From a virus (Duplodnaviria > Caudoviricetes): a stretch of DNA of 26,643 nt. The position numbers and the translations under genes are program-made. The notes under the pieces were generated by a model. The model had not been told where the DNA came from and made no database searches. It saw only the letters and a list, made by a program, of their open reading frames with translations. How positions within the stretch are numbered: the first letter of the stretch is position 1; every line of letters starts with the position of its first letter. Below are positions 4,020-19,677 of this stretch, one piece after another. The stretch lies in the IMG/VR virus record IMGVR_UViG_3300002092_000163, positions 1 to 26,643 of that record. One strand, 5' to 3'.

Positions 4020-6290
4020 ATGCCCATTACGCCCGGACTTAGCGGCAACTTGCGCCTGAACGGCGACGAGCCCAAGCCAATGAACATTGACGGCGTTGAT
4101 GTCACCATTGAGCAGGAAGGCCCGAAAGGCGATACGCCCGAGCTGGACAAGCAGGGCAACGTGCTGCGTATTGATCATGGCGATGGTTCGATCAGCGTAT
4201 CACTGGACGGCAAGCCCATTGAGGAGGCGGCCAAGAACAAGAAGAAGGGCGGCTGGTTCGAGAACCTTGCAGACGAGATTGATGACCTTGAGCTGGGCCG
4301 CATTGCCTCTGATCTGGTTCGCGGTGTTAAGCAGGACATGGAAAGCCGCAAGGAATGGATTGAGGAACGGGCACAGGGTCTGCGCCTGCTCGGGCTGAAG
4401 GTAGAGATACCGGGCCTACAGGGCAGTGCTGACGGTGCGCCGATTGAGGGCATGAGCAAGGTCCGTGACCCGCTGCTGTTGGAGGCCGTGCTGCGGTTCC
4501 AAGCCAATGCCCGGTCAGAGCTCCTGCCGACTGATGGCCCAATGAAGGTCCGCATTGACGGCAACAGTGCCAACCCAGACACGGATGATCTGGCTGAAGC
4601 ACTTGAGAAGGATATGAACCACTACCTGACGGTGACGGCCACCGAGTACTATCCCGACACCGATCGCATGCTGTTCCTGTATGGTTTCGGCGGGACTGGC
4701 GTAAAAAAGGTTTACTATTGTCCGTTGCGAAATCGTCCTGTCAGCGAATCAATTGATGCCGAGGACTTCATCGTCAACAACACCGCAACCGATCTGGCAA
4801 ACGCGAAACGAATCACCCAGCGCGTGATGATGCGGCCTAGTGTCGTTAAGCGCATGCAGATCATTGGGGCATACCGCGATGTTCAACTATCTCAGCCAAT
4901 GCAAACCACGCCCGATTCGGCGCAGCTCGAAAAAGCCAACATCCAAGGGGTTCAAACCGATACCTTTCAAGCCGAGGACCGCGACAGAGAGCTTTACGAA
5001 ATTTGTTGCGAACTCGACATCAAAGGTTTTGAACACAAGATCGATGGAGAGATTACGGGCCTTGAAATCCCGTATGTGGTCACGATCGATGTATCCTCGA
5101 AACAAATCCTCGCGATCCGCCGCAACTTCAACGAAGACGATCAAGACCTACCCGAAGCGCGTAGAATGTACGTCAAGTTTCCGTTTGTTCCGGGACTAGG
5201 GTTCTACGACATCGGTCTGCTGCACATGCTTGGCAACACAACCAATGCCATCACAGCGGGTCTGCGTGAGCTGCTCGATGCTGGTATGTATGCCAACTTC
5301 CCCGGCTTCCTGTATTCCGATGTGGGGTCACGCCAGAACAGCAACATCTTCCGCATTCCTCCCGGCGGCGGAGCCCAGATCAAGACAGGCGGCCAACCTA
5401 TTACCGATGTGGTAATGCCGCTACCGTATAAGGAACCATCGGCAACCCTGATGACACTGATTGAGGCCATGCGGCAGACAGGGCAGCGTGTCGGTGGTAC
5501 AGCAGAGTTGCCAGTGGGTGAAGGCAAGCAGGACGCTCCCGTTGGAACGACCATTGCGCTGATTGAGCAAGCCACCAAGGTGATGAACTCGGTGCACAAG
5601 CGCATGCATGCAGCACAGGCCGAAGAGTTCCAGCTGTTGGTTGACTGCTTCAAAGAACACCCCGAATCATTTTGGCAGCGCAACAAAAAACCTGCCAAGC
5701 CGTGGGATGAGCAGCTATTCCTAAAATGCCTTGAAGATTACCATCTGGTTCCGCAGGCAGACCCCAACACAGCCAGCCATATGCAGCGCATGATGAAGAT
5801 CAATGCCCTGTCGCAGTTGGCACAGCAGGCACCGCAGTTCATCAACATGGTTGAGGTTGTGAAGGCAGAGCTGCATGCAATGGGCTGGGATAACTATCAG
5901 CGGTTTATGACACCGCCCGGACCACCGCCACCAGATCCAAAGGAAGAGCTGATGAAAGCTCAGGCGCAGGCTGCGTTGATGTCAGCCAAGGCCAAGGCTG
6001 CGGCGGTTGCACACAAGATGTCCGGGCCGCCTGACACACACATGTCGGCTGCCGAGATGATGGACGCTCAATCCCGCCGCATGGATTCTGAGACAAAGCA
6101 CAAGGAGGTGCAGATCCGTGCCGCATCTGAGCAGTTGGAGGCGCAGAACCGCGCTAAGGACCGCGAAAGCCGCGAGATGCTGGCAGCGGCACAGCTTGCC
6201 AAAGAAATTGCCCAGCACCCAGAAACAATGGATCTGGTAAAACGATTTGTATCACCCGAGATGCTCCAGAAACTTCAACAGCCGAGTTAA
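4020..6290 (+). CDS. Portal protein
   Basis: 756 aa, directly after terL. Segments such as FVPGLGFYDIGL, LRELLDAG...NFPG and PVGTTIALIE..KVMNSVHKR, plus a long C-terminal helical barrel-like extension as in P22-type podoviral portals. Confidence 0.88.
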   Translation: MPITPGLSGNLRLNGDEPKPMNIDGVDVTIEQEGPKGDTPELDKQGNVLRIDHGDGSISVSLDGKPIEEAAKNKKKGGWFENLADEIDDLELGRIASDLVRGVKQDMESRKEWIEERAQGLRLLGLKVEIPGLQGSADGAPIEGMSKVRDPLLLEAVLRFQANARSELLPTDGPMKVRIDGNSANPDTDDLAEALEKDMNHYLTVTATEYYPDTDRMLFLYGFGGTGVKKVYYCPLRNRPVSESIDAEDFIVNNTATDLANAKRITQRVMMRPSVVKRMQIIGAYRDVQLSQPMQTTPDSAQLEKANIQGVQTDTFQAEDRDRELYEICCELDIKGFEHKIDGEITGLEIPYVVTIDVSSKQILAIRRNFNEDDQDLPEARRMYVKFPFVPGLGFYDIGLLHMLGNTTNAITAGLRELLDAGMYANFPGFLYSDVGSRQNSNIFRIPPGGGAQIKTGGQPITDVVMPLPYKEPSATLMTLIEAMRQTGQRVGGTAELPVGEGKQDAPVGTTIALIEQATKVMNSVHKRMHAAQAEEFQLLVDCFKEHPESFWQRNKKPAKPWDEQLFLKCLEDYHLVPQADPNTASHMQRMMKINALSQLAQQAPQFINMVEVVKAELHAMGWDNYQRFMTPPGPPPPDPKEELMKAQAQAALMSAKAKAAAVAHKMSGPPDTHMSAAEMMDAQSRRMDSETKHKEVQIRAASEQLEAQNRAKDRESREMLAAAQLAKEIAQHPETMDLVKRFVSPEMLQKLQQPS

Positions 6291-6293
6291 GAC

Positions 6294-8942
6294 ATGGCCG
6301 ACGATACAGTGAACTTAGCCAAGCAGGTGCTGTCAAACCCACAGACATTGCCTACACCCTTGCCTATGTCCGGCCAGCAACGGTTGATGCAAGCGTTTCA
6401 TGATGAAAACCGTGAAGGGCTTACTGTATCTCCTCGGCCCGGCAAAGGTGGCGGACCACCTGCCAACCCGAATCAGCCAAACCCATATGAGGACGGGCTT
6501 GAACCGTGGTCACCAGCTAGATCAGGCAAAGAGGGCGTGAATACTCCGCCTCCATTTCAGGCACCTACTCAGCAAATACCGCGCAACGAAAAGCTTGTGC
6601 AACATACGCACAAGATCTTTAAATCAAAAGCATTTAAAGACTTTGTTGAACAGCACACGGGCATCACTAACTTGCAGGCAGCCCCAACCACTGGCTCGTG
6701 GATGGGTGAAATTGAGCCGTCATATGTTATTCATGGCGACAACATGACCCCAGAAAACACCCGCAAATTGCGCGGCATGTTGGGGTTTGGATTCGGTCAA
6801 GATGCTGTGGTGCATAATCACCATAACCCCGATTTGACCGAGGGCTTTCCAACCGCCTACATTGGCAATGGGCGGAAGCTGACAGCTAAAGACATTGATG
6901 GCATCCACGCAGCCGCTAAAGAACATGGGTTAGATTTTACCATTGGCAAAAATCAAGACGCCGCATACTTTAAGCACTTTGGTGATGAAAGCGAAGTGCC
7001 GGGTTTCTTCCAAAAAGTTAAAAACATTGCCGATAAGACAAACATGCCGGATCGGTTGCACGTTAGATCACAAGGAGACTTGATAAATGCGAAAGACTAT
7101 CTCCATGACGCATTCGGAGGCGGTGGCGGCGAAGTACGGCTTCCGGCCAGCTCCAAGCGATCACCCGAGCTATTCCGAGGGATTGTTAATAACATCCTTG
7201 CCCCATACGCCAAAGCCGTCTCACAAGAAGGCTACAGGCTTTCACCAGAGCGTATCGGCGAACACTATGGGCTTTCCCCCCAAGAAGTAAGCATGGTTCG
7301 GGATGGTATGTATCCCAGACAGCAAGACGATCGGTCTACTGTGGGACTGATGACAGGCAAAGATAAGCTTGACGTTAGGCCTTCAGGCGCACGTGGCGAT
7401 GCTAGCGTTAACGACATTCTGTACGGCTTGCAGAATAGAGCTACCGCCAAGGGCCAGATAGATCCAGAAGATCGCAGTGACCGCGCTAAAGAATTGATTG
7501 CCAATACAATGGCAGACGAGGTTAACCACCATGTTAAAACGTCTGATAAGTCGGCTATTGGCTGGTACGATGAAGCTTTGAAAAAAGCCAAAGACAAATA
7601 TGCCGAGATCTTTCCAGAGATCAAAACAGACAAAGACAAGGCTATGCTGTTTGATGCCGTATTGGGCATTACATCGCAAGGCAATGACGTCCACTCAAAC
7701 TCGATTATGGCATCTCGTATCTACAATTTGGTGCGCGATGGCAAAATGTCGTTGGCTGATGCTACAAACAAGCTGAAGGGCTCTTTTGGCAACCAAACCA
7801 ATGCGATTGAGGGCAATTTGCTCAAGTTTCATAACCTGATTGAGAAGAACGGTTATGATAAAATGCGAGATGTTTTTAATACAAAAATGAGCGTTTCCGA
7901 TTGGAAGAAACGGCTTAGAACAGACCAGTCATTAACAGGTCTATCGGACGAAGCTTTGAACGTAAAAGGCTCATCCAATCAAAAGGTCACGGGCTGGTCG
8001 GTGTTTGGTCCAAAAATTGGCTCATTTATTAACAATTTGCATGGTGATTACTCCACATTGACCGCTGATCTGTGGTTTTCCCGCACGTGGAACCGAATGC
8101 TGGGGCATAACTTTATCCATACACCGCTAGCCGAAGCTAAACAGTATCAAGATTATCGGGATGCGTTTAAGGCCGAGTGGGATCATCACAATGACCCAAC
8201 ATCAAATCAAATGCCTAAAATGTCTGGTGGCAAACCTGTCCTTAAAAATGGCGAAGAACAACCTTGGCTACATGGTCAAGACCTTAAAGGCATGCCGCGT
8301 GAAGAGTTTGAGCGGATCTATAATGATCCAGAAGAACTGTTGAAGCATGCAGGTGAGATGCATAATGTCTTCAGCACCCCCAATCCTATTACAAAAGCCC
8401 CTGCATATCATGAAAAGTCAGATTTGCGCCGCCGGGCAAAGAACTGGATTGAAAACAGGGAAAATTCAGTCGCTGCCCCGCGCAACGATACCGAGCGCAA
8501 TTTCCAGCAGGCAACGGCTGAACGGGCTCAAGAGGTTCTCAAGAAAAAATATGGCGTAGACATTAGTGTTGCCGACATTCAGGCTGCTTTGTGGTTCCAT
8601 GAAAAAGAACTGCTAGGCAAATTTGGCGGCACAAACGAAAAAGCCAAGCCAGCTGATTATGCGGATGCCGCTACTAAAGCCGTTGATCTGCATAAATCTG
8701 GCAAACTTTACATGTCAATGGATGCCATCAAAAAAATAGACGCCGACAAGAAACGTGTAGAAAAAGAAGCCGCAAAGGCAGCAGCCAAGGCCGAGAAAGA
8801 ACGGTTGAAAGCAGAAGCCAAGGCTAAACCACCGGAACAAGGTTTTGCTGACGGTGGCATGCCGCATAGCCAGCATCCAGCTGCCAGCATCCCCGGCATA
8901 CACATTGTCGGCCACAACCCGATTTTTCATGGGGATGAGTGA
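6294..8942 (+). CDS. Large multidomain (polyvalent-type) protein: possible SAM-lyase-like domain and HhH/glycosylase-like domain, ending near FADGG
   Basis: 882-aa ORF. Motifs GSWMGEIEPS...FGQDAVV and GWY...TSQG..V.SN...GPKIGSFINNL...TADLWFSR...QAALW. The ORF is secure; the domain calls are inference. Confidence 0.6.
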   Translation: MADDTVNLAKQVLSNPQTLPTPLPMSGQQRLMQAFHDENREGLTVSPRPGKGGGPPANPNQPNPYEDGLEPWSPARSGKEGVNTPPPFQAPTQQIPRNEKLVQHTHKIFKSKAFKDFVEQHTGITNLQAAPTTGSWMGEIEPSYVIHGDNMTPENTRKLRGMLGFGFGQDAVVHNHHNPDLTEGFPTAYIGNGRKLTAKDIDGIHAAAKEHGLDFTIGKNQDAAYFKHFGDESEVPGFFQKVKNIADKTNMPDRLHVRSQGDLINAKDYLHDAFGGGGGEVRLPASSKRSPELFRGIVNNILAPYAKAVSQEGYRLSPERIGEHYGLSPQEVSMVRDGMYPRQQDDRSTVGLMTGKDKLDVRPSGARGDASVNDILYGLQNRATAKGQIDPEDRSDRAKELIANTMADEVNHHVKTSDKSAIGWYDEALKKAKDKYAEIFPEIKTDKDKAMLFDAVLGITSQGNDVHSNSIMASRIYNLVRDGKMSLADATNKLKGSFGNQTNAIEGNLLKFHNLIEKNGYDKMRDVFNTKMSVSDWKKRLRTDQSLTGLSDEALNVKGSSNQKVTGWSVFGPKIGSFINNLHGDYSTLTADLWFSRTWNRMLGHNFIHTPLAEAKQYQDYRDAFKAEWDHHNDPTSNQMPKMSGGKPVLKNGEEQPWLHGQDLKGMPREEFERIYNDPEELLKHAGEMHNVFSTPNPITKAPAYHEKSDLRRRAKNWIENRENSVAAPRNDTERNFQQATAERAQEVLKKKYGVDISVADIQAALWFHEKELLGKFGGTNEKAKPADYADAATKAVDLHKSGKLYMSMDAIKKIDADKKRVEKEAAKAAAKAEKERLKAEAKAKPPEQGFADGGMPHSQHPAASIPGIHIVGHNPIFHGDE

Positions 8943-11900
8943 TGGCAACCATGTCAACACACAGAATAGCCTCGGCGATAGCAAACCATTTGAAAAAAAA
9001 TGGGTTAAATGCAGAGATTGAACATTCCCGCCGTTCAAATTCAAAATATGTTTATGCATCAATTCCAGAGGACCATTATTGGGACCATTGGGACGAAATG
9101 GAAAAACAAAGTTTGAAACCCGATAAAATGAAAACAATCAGAATATCTGATCATCTTAACCCTGCCATGCGGTTTGGGCGGCAAAGCGACTCAAATGATC
9201 GGGCAATTGAAACAGATTATGAAATAAGGACTGATCAAGATAACCAAAAAAATTGGAAGGACATTGCACACGCAACTGTTTCCGATTTTTCACCTGAGAT
9301 GTCTTTTCTTCAAGGAAAAGGACAAATACCCCACAAATCAGACGGCGGGGACGTTGACGGCATCACGGCGTATCACGGGTCGCCGCATGACTTTGAGCAG
9401 TTTGACACCAGCAAGATCGGCACGGGTGAAGGCGCACAGTCTTACGGGCACGGGCTGTACTTTGCTGGGCACGAGCCTGTGGCCAAAGGATACAGGGATG
9501 CACTGAGCGGCGATCCTATCAGTCAAGAAGGCGTAAAACCTGACTGGCGTGATAGGGGGAGCAAATCTTTTGCTCAATTAGCATTGGCCCAATCAATGGA
9601 TAAAAAATTGTCCGGCGATGACGCGATACATGATGCAATGCAGGATTTGCATAAAAATGCGGGGTTGACTGAAAGAAAAGACATAAAACAACGGTATTAT
9701 GATGCCGTAAATAGTCTTGGCCAAATGCTTGGAAAAGAATGGGACATCCACAAAGGCCACATGTACGAGGTGCATATAAACGCACACCCAGACCACATGC
9801 TGGATTGGGATAAGCCGCTCAGTGAACAGTCTTCTCATATTACAAAGAGCCTGTTTGATGTTCGCAAAGAATTACCAACCTTATGGAAAAAAACACAGCA
9901 CCACATTAACAACAACAGCACCGCAAGCGATTTCTATCAATCTATCGCTGCTGGGCATCCTCATGGGTACGCGGGAGCAACTGAGCAATTGAGCCGCGCA
10001 GGCATCAAAGGCATCAAGTATCTGGATGCAGGGTCTCGCGGCGATAAGGCAGAACCCACCCACAACTATGTCGTGTTCGACCACAACGATGTTCATATCA
10101 AACGAAAGTATGAGCAAGGCGGTCAAGTTGAAGGTTATGCCGAAGGTGGCGATGTCTGGGATGATTCGCGTGTTCGCCGTTCTGGTGAGGGCGGGACAGA
10201 GACTACGCTTGATTTTGTCCAAAACGCACAGCTATACAAACAGCGCATGGAAGCACAGGCACCACAGCCTGCACCTCAAACAGAAAGCAAACCAATGCCA
10301 GTTATAGCCGCACCACCACCAGCTATTATCCGCGCCGCTGAACCAGCACCACCCGCACCAGTACAACAGCAGCCACAAGCGCAAAGTCAAACAGGTTTGT
10401 TTCACATCGGCACAAATGACACTGATCCCAACATGACGGTGCAATCAGCACAGCGAATCATTGAGTCCTCCCGTGCCATGGGCATTGACCCTGTGTTCCT
10501 GCTTCCAAATCAATCGGTAAAAAAACCTTACGCAGAAACCAGCAAGGCATTGCAAAAATATTTGGATGACAATGGTATTCAATACCACATGCCGGAATAT
10601 GAATCTGGCGATCCAGCTCATATGTCACATGAATGGGTTAACAATTTTGCAAAGACCTACAATAATCCGTTTATTGCAGGTGACAGCAACAGCGTTCGGT
10701 TGGGCAATTGGGGTTATGGTGCAAAGGGCACTGCGCTTGTCCACCCTGATAGTAAAGCAATTTTAGGCCGTGTTGGTGCAGGGTCTAAAGATATTGCTGA
10801 TGAGCTAGACAAGCACCTTAAATGGTATCAGCAAAACGCTCCACAGCATCGAAGCGATGGTGGAGAAGTTGACCGCCGTCAAATGCACCACAAAGATGTT
10901 ACAGAACGTGTCCCGCAGTTAACTGAAGGTGCAAACAAATTGGCTCAGGGCGAAATAGACAAGCATGAATACCAGCGGCTTGTTAATCAGCACAAGCCTG
11001 TGCACCCTTATGAAAGCGTCCCTGCGCCTGCCACGCATGAGGAAATGTACGCTGCTTTGCAAGAAAACAAGCGCGACAAACTTGGGCAGGCGGAAAACAT
11101 TCCAGAAGGGCACCCTGTTGGTTTGCGGCTTGATATCCCGGCCTACAAAGATCATGGCGTTTGGGTGCCTACAATCCACAATCAAAGTGACCACAAAACC
11201 ATAGCCCACGGCAGCCATGCTATGGTGTCAGATGCTACGTTTAAAATTCCGCAAAACAAAGCATTGAAAGTAGCCACGGGCACTGCAAAGTCGCCATTTG
11301 CCACTATTGACGGCAATTTTAACCATATTTCACATGAAGATGCCATCCAGCTTGCGGCACATGCTTTGAACCACCCCGAATGGACGCAGGTCGGTATGGA
11401 TCCTGAGCGGCATGGTTTTTTTTACGACCGCCGCACACAGCGTCCGGTAAAGAATGCAGCTAAAGTATTGCAGGTAGGGCCGCTTGTATTGGCTCATCAT
11501 GCCGAACTTGGCGACCTATCTGACCCAGAATACCACTATGCCCTTGGGGGCAATATTGGTCATAGGGAACATTTTGACGAAGGTGGTGACGCCAGCGGTG
11601 GTGACGCCAGCGGTGGTGACGCCAGCGGTGGTGACGCCAGCGGTGGTGACGCCAGCGGTGGTGACGATCAAGGAAGTGGTGGTGACGCAACTAGCGATAG
11701 CGAAGGACCCAGCAGCGGCGATATGGGTGGCAGTGAAGGGGAAGGCGGCAATGATAATGCTGGTGCGCCAAGTAACGCCCCTGTTACAGAAGAAAAGCCC
11801 GAAGAAAAGCCCGAAGAAAAGCCCGAAGAAGTTAAACCACCACGACCAATGCCGCTTACACCGCAGAACATGGGCACAAATTTGGGGTATGACTCAATTC

Positions 11901-12079
11901 CAAATGCAACATTTACCCCTGCGGCACCAACAGCATTACCTCCATCAACATCATTTCAACAATTTGCTGGTGGTGGTTTAGTAGATGCGGCGTTAAAGAA
12001 AGTATCCAACAAGTATACCGACACTGGTTTGCCATTGAATGCTATGGAAATATTGAGTAAGATAGCTAGAACTGGTTAA
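8939..12079 (+). CDS. Large polyvalent-type protein: RISDH domain, ADP-ribosyltransferase-like domain, permuted SGNH-like domain, unknown domain and acidic tail
   Basis: 1046-aa ORF coupled to the upstream stop. Motifs YHGSPHDFEQF...G.GLYF...GIKGIKY...YVVF, GTND / DPAH / GDS, and GLRLDIPAY...QVGMDPERH. Domains are separated by xxxGG motifs. Confidence 0.7.
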   Translation: MMATMSTHRIASAIANHLKKNGLNAEIEHSRRSNSKYVYASIPEDHYWDHWDEMEKQSLKPDKMKTIRISDHLNPAMRFGRQSDSNDRAIETDYEIRTDQDNQKNWKDIAHATVSDFSPEMSFLQGKGQIPHKSDGGDVDGITAYHGSPHDFEQFDTSKIGTGEGAQSYGHGLYFAGHEPVAKGYRDALSGDPISQEGVKPDWRDRGSKSFAQLALAQSMDKKLSGDDAIHDAMQDLHKNAGLTERKDIKQRYYDAVNSLGQMLGKEWDIHKGHMYEVHINAHPDHMLDWDKPLSEQSSHITKSLFDVRKELPTLWKKTQHHINNNSTASDFYQSIAAGHPHGYAGATEQLSRAGIKGIKYLDAGSRGDKAEPTHNYVVFDHNDVHIKRKYEQGGQVEGYAEGGDVWDDSRVRRSGEGGTETTLDFVQNAQLYKQRMEAQAPQPAPQTESKPMPVIAAPPPAIIRAAEPAPPAPVQQQPQAQSQTGLFHIGTNDTDPNMTVQSAQRIIESSRAMGIDPVFLLPNQSVKKPYAETSKALQKYLDDNGIQYHMPEYESGDPAHMSHEWVNNFAKTYNNPFIAGDSNSVRLGNWGYGAKGTALVHPDSKAILGRVGAGSKDIADELDKHLKWYQQNAPQHRSDGGEVDRRQMHHKDVTERVPQLTEGANKLAQGEIDKHEYQRLVNQHKPVHPYESVPAPATHEEMYAALQENKRDKLGQAENIPEGHPVGLRLDIPAYKDHGVWVPTIHNQSDHKTIAHGSHAMVSDATFKIPQNKALKVATGTAKSPFATIDGNFNHISHEDAIQLAAHALNHPEWTQVGMDPERHGFFYDRRTQRPVKNAAKVLQVGPLVLAHHAELGDLSDPEYHYALGGNIGHREHFDEGGDASGGDASGGDASGGDASGGDASGGDDQGSGGDATSDSEGPSSGDMGGSEGEGGNDNAGAPSNAPVTEEKPEEKPEEKPEEVKPPRPMPLTPQNMGTNLGYDSIPNATFTPAAPTALPPSTSFQQFAGGGLVDAALKKVSNKYTDTGLPLNAMEILSKIARTG
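11582..11666 (+). repeat. Perfect 15-bp coding tandem repeat (GGTGGTGACGCCAGC x5 plus a partial copy), encoding GGDAS
   Basis: Units start at 11582, 11597, 11612, 11627 and 11642, with a partial unit at 11657. Confidence 0.95.
11789..11830 (+). repeat. Perfect 12-bp coding tandem repeat (GAAGAAAAGCCC x3.5), encoding EEKP
   Basis: Units start at 11789, 11801 and 11813, with a partial unit at 11825. Confidence 0.92.
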
Positions 12080-12103
12080 TCCATCACGCACCAAGGGCAC
12101 ATT

Positions 12104-13411
12104 ATGGCTTACGATTACCACAAGGAAGCTAAGGCTTCCCGCGCCAAGAAATTGAAATCATACAAATCAGCTAACCCACATCAGAAAGTTGATTCGTCTG
12201 ATTGGACCCCTGCCGAGCCTCTGAATACTGAGGCAAAGACAGGTATGCGCCCTGTGTCTCGTCGCCAGTTTAAGCGTGGCGGCAAGGTTCTGCATAAAAT
12301 TGAAGGTGCACATACCAAAACCCGCCACGATCGCAAAGCTCGTAAGAGCGGTGGCAAAGCGGATGGCATGCCTACGGTTGATCGGTTTATCAATAAGGAT
12401 ATGAAGAAAGCCAATGAGTACCGTGATGGGGAAAAGCACGTTGGCGGCATGAAAAACGGTGGCCGCGCCCACAAAGATATGGGTGGCGGGTTGAATGCTA
12501 TGGACCCCATCATGATGGCTGGGAACCGTCTTAATTCAATGAATGCATCGGGTAACACTGGCGTATCTGGTATTACCCCCGGCATGCCCATTGGCGCGGC
12601 TGGCAAAAGCATTATGCGTATGAAAGGCCTTGGCATGAAAAAGGGCGGTCATGTAGATCACCCGGATGAAAAAGCCGATAAGCAGCTAATTAAAAAAATG
12701 ATTAAGCCATCTGCAATGAAGCGTGAAGAGCACTGCGGTGGCGGGATGGCGATGCCAAAAAAACGTGCTGGCGGTAGCGTATTCTCTGGCAACAGCAAAG
12801 AGAAAATCCCCGGCGCAACTGGTGGCCGCAAAGCTCGTGCCGATGGCGGCAATAATGGTGGCATGCGTTCTGAACGTACAGATTACGAAAAAGCTCGTCG
12901 CAATTCTGTTGACGAAGGCATGGATTTGGATACGGACAGCCAGCACACGCAGGATACGCTGCGTAAAGCGGTTCGTAATTTTGAAAACACCGCCAAGGAA
13001 ACTGGTTACTCAAACCTTAAACGCGGTGGCCGCACCAAACATGCATCTGGCGGCAAGGTTGGCAAGGGCAAAACCAACATCAATATTGTAATTGCACCGC
13101 ATGGTGGGCATCCGCAGGACCAGCAAGCCCCAGCAGGCGGCATGATGCCTCCGCAGCCCGTTCCAATGCCAAATAAACCGCCTATGGGCGGCATGCCAAT
13201 GGGTGGAATGCCAATGGGTATGGACCCAAACTTGGCACTCCTTGCCGCTAAAGGTGGTGGTGCCGGGCCTCAACCGCAGCCTCCTATGCCTATGCCAATG
13301 GGTCGCAAGGCGGGTGGCCGCGTTCCTGCCACGCATGTGATTGATAATGCCGCTGGTGGTGGCTTCGGTCGGCTTGAGAAAATTAAAGCTTACGGGCATA
13401 AAGCTTACTAA
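12104..13411 (+). CDS. Basic, low-complexity K/G/M-rich protein with about 10 xxxGG motifs (putative internal head protein)
   Basis: 435 aa containing FKRGG, RKSGG, MKNGG, KDMGG, MKKGG, HCGGG, KRAGG, RADGG, LKRGG, HASGG and RKAGG. Located in the head module. Confidence 0.7.
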   Translation: MAYDYHKEAKASRAKKLKSYKSANPHQKVDSSDWTPAEPLNTEAKTGMRPVSRRQFKRGGKVLHKIEGAHTKTRHDRKARKSGGKADGMPTVDRFINKDMKKANEYRDGEKHVGGMKNGGRAHKDMGGGLNAMDPIMMAGNRLNSMNASGNTGVSGITPGMPIGAAGKSIMRMKGLGMKKGGHVDHPDEKADKQLIKKMIKPSAMKREEHCGGGMAMPKKRAGGSVFSGNSKEKIPGATGGRKARADGGNNGGMRSERTDYEKARRNSVDEGMDLDTDSQHTQDTLRKAVRNFENTAKETGYSNLKRGGRTKHASGGKVGKGKTNINIVIAPHGGHPQDQQAPAGGMMPPQPVPMPNKPPMGGMPMGGMPMGMDPNLALLAAKGGGAGPQPQPPMPMPMGRKAGGRVPATHVIDNAAGGGFGRLEKIKAYGHKAY

Positions 13412-13501: not shown

Positions 13502-13756
13502 ATGAAACAATATGATTCGGTAGTAGCACGTGAAACCGCAAAGCAAATACATGAACTCATCAACAACATTACTGATGCAGTTGTTTGCGGACATTATAGT
13601 GAACGGGAATATGCCCGTGACTGCGGGTTAATAACTGGCCTCAAGCGTTCCCTCGAAGTTTTGGATGATGCCGAAGTGTACATCCGCACTGGCAAACACA
13701 TATGGGAAATTGAAGAGGAACAGAACAAAAATGCCATATCGTCCTATGAAACATAA
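13502..13756 (+). CDS. Small helical hypothetical protein (84 aa)
   Basis: GGAGA RBS before ATG 13502, in frame with track ORF 13463; Y...CG.I.GL pattern; precedes the GroES-like gene. Confidence 0.7.
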   Translation: MKQYDSVVARETAKQIHELINNITDAVVCGHYSEREYARDCGLITGLKRSLEVLDDAEVYIRTGKHIWEIEEEQNKNAISSYET

Positions 13757-14123
13757 TATCGACCCCAAGAAGATACTTCTTGATGAAATGGGCGATATTT
13801 CAAATGTAGATATCTATAACAACCAAGTTTTGGTGGCTGTTTACTTGCGCCCAGAACAAACAGGCTCGGGTATCTTTTTGCCAGAAAAGAACCGTGATGA
13901 AGATCGCTATCAAGGCAAGGTAGGGCTTGTACTCAAACTTGGCCCCAATGCTTTTGGCGAAACAAACGACAATTTTTTCAATGGTGTAGACGTAAAACTC
14001 AGTGATTGGGTCTACTTCAAACCGTCTGATGGATGGTCCATCACGGTTCATGGTGTCCTCTGCCGCATTCTCGATGACAGTTCTGTCCGAGGCAAAATTG
14101 ATGCGCCGGATGTTGTTTGGTAA
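13731..14123 (+). CDS. groES: GroES/Cpn10-like co-chaperonin
   Basis: QVLV...EQTGSGIFLP (mobile loop)...G.VLKLGP...VK..DWV.F....G...RILDD..V.G matches the Cpn10 pattern. GAGG RBS before ATG 13731. Confidence 0.8.
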   Translation: MPYRPMKHNIDPKKILLDEMGDISNVDIYNNQVLVAVYLRPEQTGSGIFLPEKNRDEDRYQGKVGLVLKLGPNAFGETNDNFFNGVDVKLSDWVYFKPSDGWSITVHGVLCRILDDSSVRGKIDAPDVVW

Positions 14124-14130
14124 GGAATAG

Positions 14131-14991
14131 ATGATGTCAGATGAAGATAAAAAAGACGGCATTGAAGTTGTTATTGAAGCCCCTGAAAAGGAAAACGAAT
14201 CAACTGCCAATGAAGTTCCGTTTGAAAAAGGCATTGAAGCTCTCAAAGCCCAGCTTGAAGAAGAAAAGCAAAAGCGTTTTGCCGCAGAATCAGCAGCGCA
14301 TGAAGCTGCTATTGTCGCTCAACAAGCTAAGGTTGAGGTTGCAGATAATGAAATGCACCTTATCAACAATGCAATTGAAGCGGTTAGGCGCAATGCGGAT
14401 CTTTTAAAGCGTGAATATGCGGAGGCGTTGTCTACTGGCGCATACGACCGCGCTGCTGAAATGCAAGAATTGATTGCCAGCAACTCATATAAGCTTTCAA
14501 AGCTTGTTGACGGCAAAGACGCATTGCAAAATCGGCCTACTCCGGTTGCACCAACCATTAATGACCCGGTTGAACAGGTTGCATCGCAGCTATCTCCACG
14601 TTCTGCGGCGTGGGTTCGGACGCACCCTGAGTATGTCAAAGACCCAGTAAAGTATGAATCAATGCTTCGGGCACACAATGTGGCCGTTGCGGAAGGCTAT
14701 TCGCCTGATTCGGATGCTTATTTTCAGTTTGTAGAGAACCGCTTGGGGTTTCGCAACGAACAGAAAGCAGAAACAGAAGCGGATCATACATCAACTGCGG
14801 CAAAACCTACGCAGAAACGGCAAGCTGCACCTGCTGCACCGTCTTCCTCGGTGGCTGGTAGCGGATCAGGGCGAACATTAGTTGCTCGTTTGTCTGCCGA
14901 AGAACGTGAAGTGGCAGAAATGTTGAAGATGACACCTGAAGAATACGCAAAAAACCGCGAAGATTTGCGTAAAGAAGGCAAATTGAACTGA
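14131..14991 (+). CDS. Putative capsid scaffolding protein
   Basis: Acidic, coiled-coil-rich 286 aa with a flexible linker and a C-terminal helix-turn-helix (LSAEEREVAEMLKMTPEEYAKN) ending basic. Lies upstream of the capsid genes. Confidence 0.7.
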   Translation: MMSDEDKKDGIEVVIEAPEKENESTANEVPFEKGIEALKAQLEEEKQKRFAAESAAHEAAIVAQQAKVEVADNEMHLINNAIEAVRRNADLLKREYAEALSTGAYDRAAEMQELIASNSYKLSKLVDGKDALQNRPTPVAPTINDPVEQVASQLSPRSAAWVRTHPEYVKDPVKYESMLRAHNVAVAEGYSPDSDAYFQFVENRLGFRNEQKAETEADHTSTAAKPTQKRQAAPAAPSSSVAGSGSGRTLVARLSAEEREVAEMLKMTPEEYAKNREDLRKEGKLN

Positions 14992-15004: not shown

Positions 15005-15553
15005 ATGGTACAGAGAAAGAATAATTTGCCTTCAGAGGCAACAAATGAGGTTGAAGCAACTGCTGAAACCCCAAAAGTAGGCCGCACGGTGCGTAAAAGT
15101 GCAAAAGACCGTGCAGCAGAAATCCGTGCAAACCGTGGTGACGCTGATATTGAAAGCGTAGACCGCTATCGGGTTGATCACCTCAACCTTGACCCCGAAT
15201 GGACCTATGAATGGAAGCGTAAAACCCTTCTTGGCAAAGAAGATCCATCTTATGAGGTCAGTTTGTCTCGTGGCGGGTGGGAACCAGTGCCTCTGGACCG
15301 CCATCCAGAGATGATGCCGCTTGCTCACAAGGGAAAAACCATTGAAGTTGATGGCATGATCCTTATGGAGCGTCCAAAAGAACTGACAGATGAAGCCCGG
15401 CGCGTTGAAGAACGCCGCGCAAAGGCTCAGGTTCGCACCAAAGAAGAACAGTTGCGCGAGACGCCTGCTGGAACCTTGTCCCGCGATGCTGACGCCCGTA
15501 TCAAACCAAAGATTAGCAAAAGTTTTGAACGGATGCCTATCCCAACCGAATAA
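15005..15553 (+). CDS. Hypothetical head-module protein
   Basis: GGAG RBS; 182 aa with YEWKR, GWEPV..HPE and GMILMERP; sits between the scaffold and capsid genes. Confidence 0.75.
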   Translation: MVQRKNNLPSEATNEVEATAETPKVGRTVRKSAKDRAAEIRANRGDADIESVDRYRVDHLNLDPEWTYEWKRKTLLGKEDPSYEVSLSRGGWEPVPLDRHPEMMPLAHKGKTIEVDGMILMERPKELTDEARRVEERRAKAQVRTKEEQLRETPAGTLSRDADARIKPKISKSFERMPIPTE

Positions 15554-16694: not shown

Positions 16695-17609
16695 ATGGCT
16701 GTTAATCTTTCAGCAATCAAGGATCTGCTCCTTCCCGGTCTTCGCGGCGTAGAGGGCAAGTACGAGATGATCCCATCTCAGTACGACAAGATCTTTACGA
16801 AGCATGACTCGAAAATGGCTCTCGAACGTACCGCAGAAATGCGTTACCTCGGGTATGCCCAGCTTAAAAACGAAGGTGGCCAGACCACTTTTGATAACGG
16901 AGCTGGTGAGCGTTATGTCTACAATCAGGAGCACGTTGAAATTGCTCTTGGCTATGCGATTACCCGTAAGGCAATTGATGACAACCTCTACAAAACCCAG
17001 TTTGCACCTTCTAACCTTGGCCTGATTGAATCTTTCCAGCAGACCAAAGAAATCTACGGCGCAAACGTCCTGAACACTGCAACGACTTACCAGAACCAAG
17101 TCGGCGGTGACGGTGTGGCACTCTGCTCCACTGCCCATCCGATCGACGGCGGTACTGTTGCAAACCGTCCTACCACTGACGTTGACTTGAACGAATCGAC
17201 CCTGCTTAACGGCATGATCGGCATTCGTACTCAGTTCCGCGATCAGGCAGGTTTGAAAGTGTTTGCTCGTGGTCGTAAGTTGGTTGTTCCTGCCCAGTTG
17301 GAGCCAGTTGCAATTCGTCTGACAAAGACTGAACTGCGCCCGGGTACAGCAGATAATGACGTGAATGCGATTCTCACGACCGCAGGTGGTTTGTCAGAAG
17401 GCTACATGACCAACGACTTCTTGACCTCCCAGTATGCTTGGTTCTTGCTGACCAACATTGATGGTCTGTCGTACATGGAGCGCATTCCCTTCGAAACTGA
17501 TATGCAAGTCGACTTTGTGACAGATAACTTGCTGGTCAAAGGGTATGAGCGTTATAGCTTCTCTTACTATAACTGGCGTTCGATCTACGGTTCATTCCCA
17601 ACCTTCTAA
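16695..17609 (+). CDS. Major capsid protein (HK97 fold, Mu gpT-like size)
   Basis: 304 aa; AAGGAG RBS; K.EG..T.FD, ALGYAITRKAIDDNLY, DGVALCSTAHP, KLVVPAQL, DFLTS..AWF and ERYSF...WR.IYGS pattern; position after the scaffold. Confidence 0.85.
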   Translation: MAVNLSAIKDLLLPGLRGVEGKYEMIPSQYDKIFTKHDSKMALERTAEMRYLGYAQLKNEGGQTTFDNGAGERYVYNQEHVEIALGYAITRKAIDDNLYKTQFAPSNLGLIESFQQTKEIYGANVLNTATTYQNQVGGDGVALCSTAHPIDGGTVANRPTTDVDLNESTLLNGMIGIRTQFRDQAGLKVFARGRKLVVPAQLEPVAIRLTKTELRPGTADNDVNAILTTAGGLSEGYMTNDFLTSQYAWFLLTNIDGLSYMERIPFETDMQVDFVTDNLLVKGYERYSFSYYNWRSIYGSFPTF

Positions 17610-18900: not shown

Positions 18901-19359
18901 ATGAAAGGTCATAAGGCACACCACGGGCACGGCCACCACGAGCACCATGCCCATCATGCTCACCACGCTCATCATGCACACCACGCCCATAAACACCACG
19001 GCGCAGAACATCCAGAACATGAATACGAGGAAGGCATGAAAAAGCATCACCGCAAGGCCCGTAAACACGGCGGCGCAATGGACCTTCCACATGAAGGTAA
19101 GTTTGCATCGGATAAAGCACCTAAAGAAGTTTATGAAGGTGCTGGTTCACACGTTGTGAAGGAAGCAGAAGCTAAGAAACGTGGCGGTCGTGCTAAAAAG
19201 CACCTCGGTCATGTTCACGGCGAACATGCTCATATGCGTCACGATCGCCCTGCCCGTAAAAGTGGCGGTCGCACAGGTTCCAACTTTAGCCCTTTGTCAT
19301 CCGCACACAAAGGCACGGAGCCTAAAAAGCACAAGTCCTATGAGTCTGAAGTCCATTAA
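18901..19359 (+). CDS. His/Lys-rich protein with three xxxGG motifs
   Basis: AAGGAG RBS; N-terminal HHA/HHG repeats encoded with mixed CAC/CAT codons; RKHGG, KKRGG and RKSGG; followed by a terminator. Confidence 0.8.
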   Translation: MKGHKAHHGHGHHEHHAHHAHHAHHAHHAHKHHGAEHPEHEYEEGMKKHHRKARKHGGAMDLPHEGKFASDKAPKEVYEGAGSHVVKEAEAKKRGGRAKKHLGHVHGEHAHMRHDRPARKSGGRTGSNFSPLSSAHKGTEPKKHKSYESEVH

Positions 19360-19428: not shown

Positions 19429-19677
19429 ATGGCTAAATCCCCGGCTTGGCAAAGATCAGAAGGCAAGTCACCGTCTGGTGGTTTAAACGCTAAAGGACGC
19501 GCTTCAGCAAAGGCCGAAGGGCATAACCTGAAGGCACCTAGCAAAGACCATGAAAACTCACGCCACAAATCGTTTTGTGAGCGTATGACGGGCATGAAGC
19601 GCAAACTTACTGGTGCCGCTGCTGCCGCAGATCCTGACAGTCGCATCAACAAATCACTTCGCAAGTGGGATTGCTAA
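19429..19677 (+). CDS. Small basic protein (82 aa) with SFCxRM and a C-terminal WxC
   Basis: GAGG RBS; GGLNAKGRAS...RHKSFCERM...SRINKSLRKWDC, a pattern I recall from phage structural regions (function unknown). Confidence 0.75.
   Translation: MAKSPAWQRSEGKSPSGGLNAKGRASAKAEGHNLKAPSKDHENSRHKSFCERMTGMKRKLTGAAAAADPDSRINKSLRKWDC

Follow-up and report, generated by a model that had tools for sequence, protein, structure and literature searches.

Internal proteins of bacteriophage T4 carry a capsid-targeting sequence that is removed by gp21, and the virion core polyproteins of adenovirus and of African swine fever virus (ASFV; pp220 and pp62) are processed at GG/X, where the slash marks the cut. 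Among phages, polyvalent proteins were proposed to be packaged, injected and released by proteolysis, and embedded zincin metallopeptidase domains, present in about 36% of members, were credited with the release (Iyer et al., 2017, PMC5512222; here and below, papers are cited for the sections available to us). We compared these systems with a 26,643-nucleotide stretch of viral DNA (IMG/VR record IMGVR_UViG_3300002092_000163; Duplodnaviria, Caudoviricetes), a 26.6-kb piece of a phage genome that is called the window below. Three large genes behind its portal gene encode proteins in which a five-residue motif ending in Gly-Gly recurs. The cargo class that these proteins resemble is already known; the motif is real and specific, and the mechanism behind it is likely but unproven. 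By analogy with phages for which cuts or ordered pieces have been mapped, we give a probability of roughly 0.48 to the reading in which the motif is a cut mark used inside the head, in the register X/[AK]-x-G-G, and an amphipathic helix at the protein termini is a loading tag. The motif marks the joints of shuffled modules in proteins that are likely packed inside the podovirus head, and the terminal helix would bring about loading of the precursor into the prohead. A cut at each motif would then remove the tag and free 15-30 kDa enzyme modules (in relatives similar to ADP-ribosyltransferase (ART), GNAT, M15, lysozyme and pyrophosphatase) together with small basic peptides; the freed modules would be small enough for passage through the portal and would then be ejected.

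The locus resembles polyvalent proteins in encoding large multi-domain proteins near head genes, with ART-PolyVal, LPD23, InPase and GNAT modules, in joining at least two unrelated conflict-type domains per chain in relatives (GNAT+M15+ART among several combinations), and in an architecture that varies by lineage and is linked to head genes. The conflict-type domains of the second cargo protein of the window (protein B) are two weak, sub-threshold Pfam matches. Unlike polyvalent proteins with their zincins, the window has none by Pfam and 63 relatives gave one weak DUF6782 match, although a zincin is not obligatory in that class; a shared linker motif or terminal helix is not described in the available sections of PMC5512222. 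The preliminary description of this DNA had proposed a new system. For the cargo, given its likeness to phage polyvalent proteins, this claims too much; the undescribed part is the motif code, of which no account was found in the open-licence literature, a scope outside which most subscription papers lie.

The proteins and motif copies concerned are as follows (aa, amino acids).

6294 to 8942, plus strand: cargo protein A, 882 aa, whose core (aa 70-806) is a mobile module that recurs in a relative; one motif near the C-terminus
6306 to 6335, plus strand: N-terminal helix-like segment that by sequence resembles the cargo terminal tag and misses the strict pattern
8844 to 8858, plus strand: FADGG, in frame in protein A
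8939 to 12079, plus strand: cargo protein B, 1046 aa, with motifs between modules according to motif and module mapping
9335 to 9349, plus strand: KSDGG, in frame in protein B, at the start of the ART-like module
9338 to 10111, plus strand: ADP-ribosyltransferase-like mobile module, aa 134-391 of protein B (PF18760, E 3e-5, partial, below the curated cut-off)
10109 to 10150, plus strand: tandem YEQGG (10109) and YAEGG (10136), in frame in protein B
10850 to 10864, plus strand: RSDGG, in frame in protein B
10853 to 11539, plus strand: L5 gp82-like mobile module, aa 639-867 of protein B (PF25735, E 7e-5, below the cut-off)
11537 to 11587, plus strand: tandem YALGG (11537) and FDEGG (11573, atypical), then low-complexity DASGG repeats, in frame in protein B
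11963 to 12010, plus strand: last motif of protein B, FAGGG (11963), then a C-terminal helix resembling the terminal tag
12104 to 13411, plus strand: conserved basic low-complexity protein of 435 aa with 8-9 motifs; 54 orthologues
18901 to 19359, plus strand: small basic His-rich protein with three motifs (19060, 19174, 19255), whose position after the capsid genes is kept in relatives

All eight copies named in the preliminary description lie in frame where it had placed them. Its statement that the motif falls at nearly every domain boundary is borne out for the 1046-aa protein and its relatives but not for the 882-aa protein, which has one copy, 31 residues from its end. The commonest short spacing between motifs is 8-9 aa. 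The second residue of FDEGG (11573) is atypical, and this copy leads into six low-complexity DASGG repeats; these and the EEKP repeats that follow make up an acidic low-complexity stretch of protein B (window 11585-11662). For counting, the motif was written as M1, [FYMHRK][AKSEQRN]xGG, and as the stricter M2, M1 followed by x[VIT] (in brief, [FYMHRK][AK]xGGx[VIT]); the pattern was refined after the first 80 loci of relatives had been seen. The 435-aa gene has nine copies by a broad pattern and eight by M1. Taken together, protein A, protein B and the 435-aa protein contain 15 M1 sites against 3.07 expected and 11 M2 sites against 0.38 (p=0.0005 for each, both in 2000 whole-protein shuffles and in 2000 shuffles within 40-residue windows). 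In 19 other window proteins, with gene 18901 left out, the counts were 2 against 2.7 (M1) and 1 against 0.6 (M2). Bare GG pairs reached only about 1.5-2.3 times the number expected from Gly content, and the signal is therefore carried by the flanking residues. Gene 18901-19359 holds three further copies (3 against 0.45 expected, p=0.008) that fell outside the range of the preliminary description and were missed there.

The phage is treated as an HTVC023P-like podovirus because its major capsid protein is 89% identical to that of the complete genome MW202675.1 and 37-41% identical to those of Pelagibacter phage HTVC023P (41%), Roseobacter phage CRP-901 and MinM2. Such phages, kin to a pelagiphage, are abundant: an estimated 1700 or so IMG/VR stretches match capsid peptide patterns. 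We retrieved 194 IMG/VR loci of relatives with portal, scaffold and capsid queries; redundancy was removed before counting, and the counts come from related phages rather than from independent events. M2 occurred 210 times against 12.9 expected in the cargo proteins of relatives (about 16-fold; 137 of 181 proteins), 280 times against 9.1 in 65 orthologues of the 435-aa gene and 35 times against 0.9 in 18 orthologues of gene 18901. In later loci, for which the pattern had already been fixed, the counts were 92 against 5.8 in 73 cargo proteins and 204 against 7.0 in a second set of 50. No M2 site was present in capsid (2 sequences), scaffold (56), GroES (42), adaptor (29) or large terminase (19) proteins; tail proteins had 8 against 8.2 expected, and proteins encoded upstream of the portal 1 against 3.6. 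An apparent excess in portal proteins (M1 20 against 8.2) was rejected as a case of cargo motifs, as 15 of the 20 are one conserved internal site, MR[IVL]GG. The block from the portal to the 435-aa gene is highly variable among relatives, and the 435-aa gene is conserved: its GG is invariant in 54/54 orthologues at four of the seven sites checked. The pieces predicted from the 435-aa protein are 8-88 aa long with a pI of 8.4-11.7, and motif density in the small basic proteins is high, at 20-30 per 1000 aa.

The same motif is found in the ejection module. The multi-copy proteins of MW202675.1 are encoded in the portal-adjacent block, by a 193-aa gene before the acetyltransferase gene and by a gene annotated 'internal virion protein D'; the gene after the latter carries a single copy close to its end, and one loose match each was seen in four further genes. 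Across 80 loci, M2 occurred 64 times against 8.8 expected in relatives of 'internal virion protein D', 26 against 2.6 in the next protein and 29 against 1.8 in the 193-aa gene, compared with 3 against 5.0 in the nozzle and 0 against 0.8 in the acetyltransferase. HTVC023P, MinM2 and F116 have the motif in equivalent genes, and CRP-901 is essentially free of it. Counts in the window, in its relatives and in MW202675.1 agree with a restriction of the motif to proteins that are probably head-internal, as the preliminary description had it; we infer a location of the cargo inside the head from the sequence signals that cargo and ejection-module proteins have in common.

A second such signal is an amphipathic helix, found at 36 of 118 cargo N-termini (1.7 expected) and 44 of 103 C-termini (2.4 expected). 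The second ejection-module protein has it at the C-terminus in 23 of 24 sequences, and it is about absent from six control groups. The termini of the window cargo are helix-like and miss the strict pattern. The distance from the last motif to the protein end is 14-36 residues in 54 of 101 cargo proteins. In relatives, the large ejection-module protein (L220:11077-14823; L081:9188-12745) has S74 intramolecular-chaperone and SLT domains between motifs.

To locate the motif relative to module joints, motif-bearing proteins were compared by all-against-all BLAST. Alignments broke within 10 aa of a motif at 19.8% of 504 starts and 22.8% of 447 ends, about 2.7 times the rate for shifted motifs (7.5% and 7.9%) and beyond the maximum of 500 nulls (11.1% and 11.6%). 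Pfam scans covered 63 of the 126 cargo proteins of at least 250 aa, and 35 had matches, including ART-PolyVal, GNAT, M15/VanY, phage lysozyme, LPD23, InPase, DUF7178 and GP88 modules. Only 5 of the 118 motifs in these 35 proteins lay inside Pfam stretches against 19.6 expected. All 12 full ART-PolyVal matches are followed by a motif at a distance of 9-19 aa. The two modules of protein B (aa 134-391 and aa 639-867) differ in position from relative to relative, and their ends mostly coincide with a motif: the ART-like module gave 34 matched stretches, all within portal-adjacent proteins of relatives, and 8 of 8 homologues of the L5 gp82-like module end at most 4 aa from a motif. A relative of 1643 aa contains the core of protein A at aa 859-1595, and a motif follows this core after 14 aa. 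No homologue among the fetched loci was found for protein B aa 1-133 and 485-638; protein A had no match by sequence in Pfam, PHROG or PDB, and sequence searches gave no solved relatives for the capsid protein, the ART-like module or the protein A core. Alignment breaks, avoidance of Pfam domains and recurring modules together uphold the view that modular cargo is strung together at the motif.

Evidence on cutting comes from other phages. The sole match to the motif in the 1219-aa pb2 protein of T5 is R1127-A-E-G-G, and its maturation cut was mapped after R1127 by mass spectrometry (PMC10038345), that is, after the first residue of an identical five-residue pattern ([RKFY]-A-x-G-G). Pb2 differs in being a siphophage tail lumen protein with one site. 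The cargo protein gp45 (C1, PF25725) of crAss001, head-internal by cryo-EM and mass spectrometry (PMC10172136), has eight AxGG sites in its 842 residues (L199:41987-44515), which flank both pieces resolved by cryo-EM. The portal-bound piece, modelled from residue 425 to 552 (PMC10172136), begins with the A of N424-A-F-G-G and ends before F559-A-Y-G-G, and the tail piece 214-245 sits between motifs at 206 and 260. Because motifs bracket both pieces, gp45 may be cut and not stretched over 420 Å. CrAss001 belongs to an unrelated phage order, and no cleavage is reported in the available sections of that paper. By analogy, T5 pb2 and crAss001 gp45 point to the register X/AxGG, four residues before GG/X.

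A third case is gpH of phage lambda, which is cut into pieces of about 78 and 14 kDa, with site and catalyst reported as unknown (PMC12617516). It has motifs at F733 and Y778 followed by an element, GE[FY]V, that is related to a domain of the podoviruses described below, and it is cut near there. The code predicts a cut after F733, which makes the open question of PMC12617516 testable. Further mapped tape-measure cuts were not found in the available sections of PMC1796659, PMC12724387, PMC10713586 and preprint 10.64898/2026.02.24.707460; the site in preprint 10.64898/2026.04.10.717836 is unrelated, and the available part of PMC9599517 makes no mention of one. No conserved motif was seen in tape-measure C-terminal fragments according to the available part of PMC10713586.

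A number of observations count against a cut at the motif. Pfam and PHROG scans found no protease among 24 window proteins, and the annotation of MW202675.1 names only an SprT-like zincin and a cell-wall M15 protein, to which Pfam adds an S74 self-cleaving domain. The amino acid just ahead of the proposed cut varies in chemistry (F, Y, K, R, H or M, and N at crAss 424). Capsid and scaffold, moreover, are without the motif. The first cargo protein of MW202675.1 and gp83 of HTVC023P end 3-7 residues past a motif, where a cut frees almost nothing, and about 80% of alignment breaks lie away from motifs. Among the outside data, gp45 is taken as one continuous chain by the crAss001 authors in the available sections (PMC10172136), and the plain alternative for T5 and crAss001 is that the motif is a domain start, where linker cuts and edges of ordered density fall anyway. 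A cut of lambda gpH after F733 gives 79.8 and 12.5 kDa, whereas a cut near residue 710 agrees better with the reported gel masses.

A cutting enzyme was looked for in and around the head module. Pfam and PHROG gave no match to a gp21- or HK97-type prohead protease from terminase to adaptor. The two-part logic of the T4 system, a short terminal loading tag and a cut mark, would be shared if the sequence-based role of the helix is right; the locus differs from T4 in lacking such a protease in the head module, in having no M2 site in capsid (2) and scaffold (56), and in the sequence itself. A conserved head-module protein was considered as a candidate protease:

15005 to 15553, plus strand: conserved 182-aa head-module protein, 1171 homologues

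It was rejected, with no Pfam or PHROG match, no invariant Cys, Ser, Asp or His, a model pLDDT of 77 and no Foldseek match below E 0.7. The protein sits between the scaffold and decoration genes, and the core of its model is confident without a PDB match.

The other candidate is encoded by the 193-aa gene of relatives, which consists of two related halves (hhalign 81%), each of the small GE[FY]V element. The gene and its domain are absent from the window contig in all six frames. The gene lies on the same contigs as cargo in four cases, adjoining the ejection genes of relatives. The element is present in MinM2, Caulobacter phage RW and F116 (iE 8e-12 to 1e-4), was not found in 49 of the 53 kb of CRP-901, and belongs to a family of 3249 clusters at E 0.001. 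Its link to tape measures is weak (lambda hhalign 53%, E 1.3e-4; weak tblastn matches). In tape measures of the T5 type a GE-containing element stands directly behind the motif; the window has no such domain, and in relatives it is on a separate gene. Among 99 tandem copies, Asp and Ser occur in the first half, from which Glu is missing in 98 of 99, and the second half has Glu in 99 of 99, a split that would suit a composite acid dyad. Attempts to identify the protein as a protease failed: its model has a pLDDT of 60, and Foldseek and PDB sequence searches returned nothing. With VIA the best Z was 3.9, with no crAss or protease row. As a homologue of crAss C1 it was likewise rejected; the nearest Pfam cluster in the Atlas, crAss_CARG1 at 0.81, is a lead only, and neither the profile link to C1 nor that to the T5 domain is significant. 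Complex prediction with the domain and a motif peptide of the same contig scored 0.03 against a mark of 0.32, a result that counts neither way. On sequence grounds, this small domain encoded beside the ejection genes of relatives is a doubtful candidate for the cutter. It is somewhat more doubtful still that siphophage tape measures, the C1 cargo of crassviruses and the head cargo of podoviruses obey one code, X/[AK]xGG, with the GE[FY]V domain as an undescribed acid (Asp/Glu) protease that reads it in trans in podoviruses and in cis in tape measures. If that were true, the cutter of lambda gpH would be named, and crAss001 gp45 would be cut into separately stored pieces.

The best surviving alternative to cutting is an uncut docking tag, in which the motif would bind a groove on the inner capsid, the portal or the core, many copies would form a multivalent tether, and the 435-aa protein would be an internal net for cargo. 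This is possible, if rather unlikely. It would account for the failure to find a protease, for copies at extreme C-termini, for the high copy number in small basic proteins and for a copy of its own on each module, and the AFGG residues of crAss001 belong to the ordered portal-bound piece. However, the second, terminal signal already fits the loading role, and tail tape measures carry the motif too without docking on the capsid, and there it coincides with a mapped cut.

We consider it improbable that the motif serves as a structural hinge or a handling signal, neither cut nor docked, that derives from the first strand of the GE[FY]V element of tape measures and helps modules to unfold or thread singly through the portal. 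In 123 of 139 representatives the element is preceded by a motif at a distance of at most 60 aa, and tape measures and podovirus ejection proteins, which both carry the motif, both pass a narrow channel. Against this, the side-chain preferences (Y 7.8x, K 4.6x, F 4.2x, A 4.6x) go beyond the needs of a flexible hinge, and the small basic proteins lack folded modules that would need threading.

Cutting after GG by an adenain- or ASFV-type cysteine protease, the register that the preliminary description had borrowed from ASFV and adenovirus, is very improbable. The di-glycine is shared with those virion core polyproteins and GG is the most conserved part of the motif, but no matching enzyme was found (none of adenain type among the 24 proteins of this 26.6-kb piece or in MW202675.1, the latter covered by its annotation and six Pfam scans only), and the T5 cut, R1127/AEGG, and the crAss001 edge both lie four residues earlier. 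Least probable is that the motif reflects, at the protein level, a DNA recombination word used to shuffle modules, or that it arises as a side effect of Gly-rich linkers, which would suit the clustering of alignment breaks and a mild codon bias (first Gly GGC or GGT at 94% of 919 sites against 75% for other Gly) but is largely refuted, since enrichment survives the 40-residue local shuffles, Gly-rich tail proteins show none, and a protein that is not shuffled keeps its GG pairs unchanged among its orthologues; varying codons (at least eight dicodons, the commonest at 270 of 919 sites) speak against the DNA word. As the codons vary, selection acts on the protein, in keeping with the preliminary description.

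If cutting at the motif and loading by the helix are both true, a portable loading tag together with a cut mark would explain the free swapping of injected effectors. Module boundaries would become readable from sequence, and the signals might provide a tool for loading proteins into phage heads.

In the 26.6-kb window, genes for the small and large terminase are followed by the portal gene, the three large unannotated genes and a GroES-like gene, and then by those for a probable scaffold, the 182-aa protein, a decoration protein (probable, from its position), the major capsid protein, an SU10-type adaptor and the tail. No tRNA genes were found in it. The neighbours of the cargo block are:

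4020 to 6290, plus strand: portal protein, upstream limit of the cargo block (PF23899, E 1e-11; phrog_1216, E 2e-21)
13665 to 14123, plus strand: GroES-like co-chaperonin without the motif (PF00166, E 7e-8)
14131 to 14991, plus strand: probable scaffold without the motif, assigned from its position (phrog_28737, function unknown)
16695 to 17609, plus strand: HTVC023P-like major capsid protein (phrog_371; 41% HTVC023P, 89% MW202675.1)

KKKGG occurs at window 4239-4253, in an N-terminal extension of the portal protein just ahead of the conserved core, and a similar site is present in 3 of 30 portals. The phage GroES gene (window 13665-14123) is near the cargo block, and crAss001 encodes a GroES too (gp15). 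Host groE is reported to have a role in T5 pb2 cleavage. A single 90.6-kb IMG/VR contig (L074/L076, also L220/L221) carries two copies of the head and ejection modules in opposite orientations, which is probably an artefact of assembly. At window 19429-19677 is an 82-aa DUF6321 protein, and several longer PHROG families end in the same domain.

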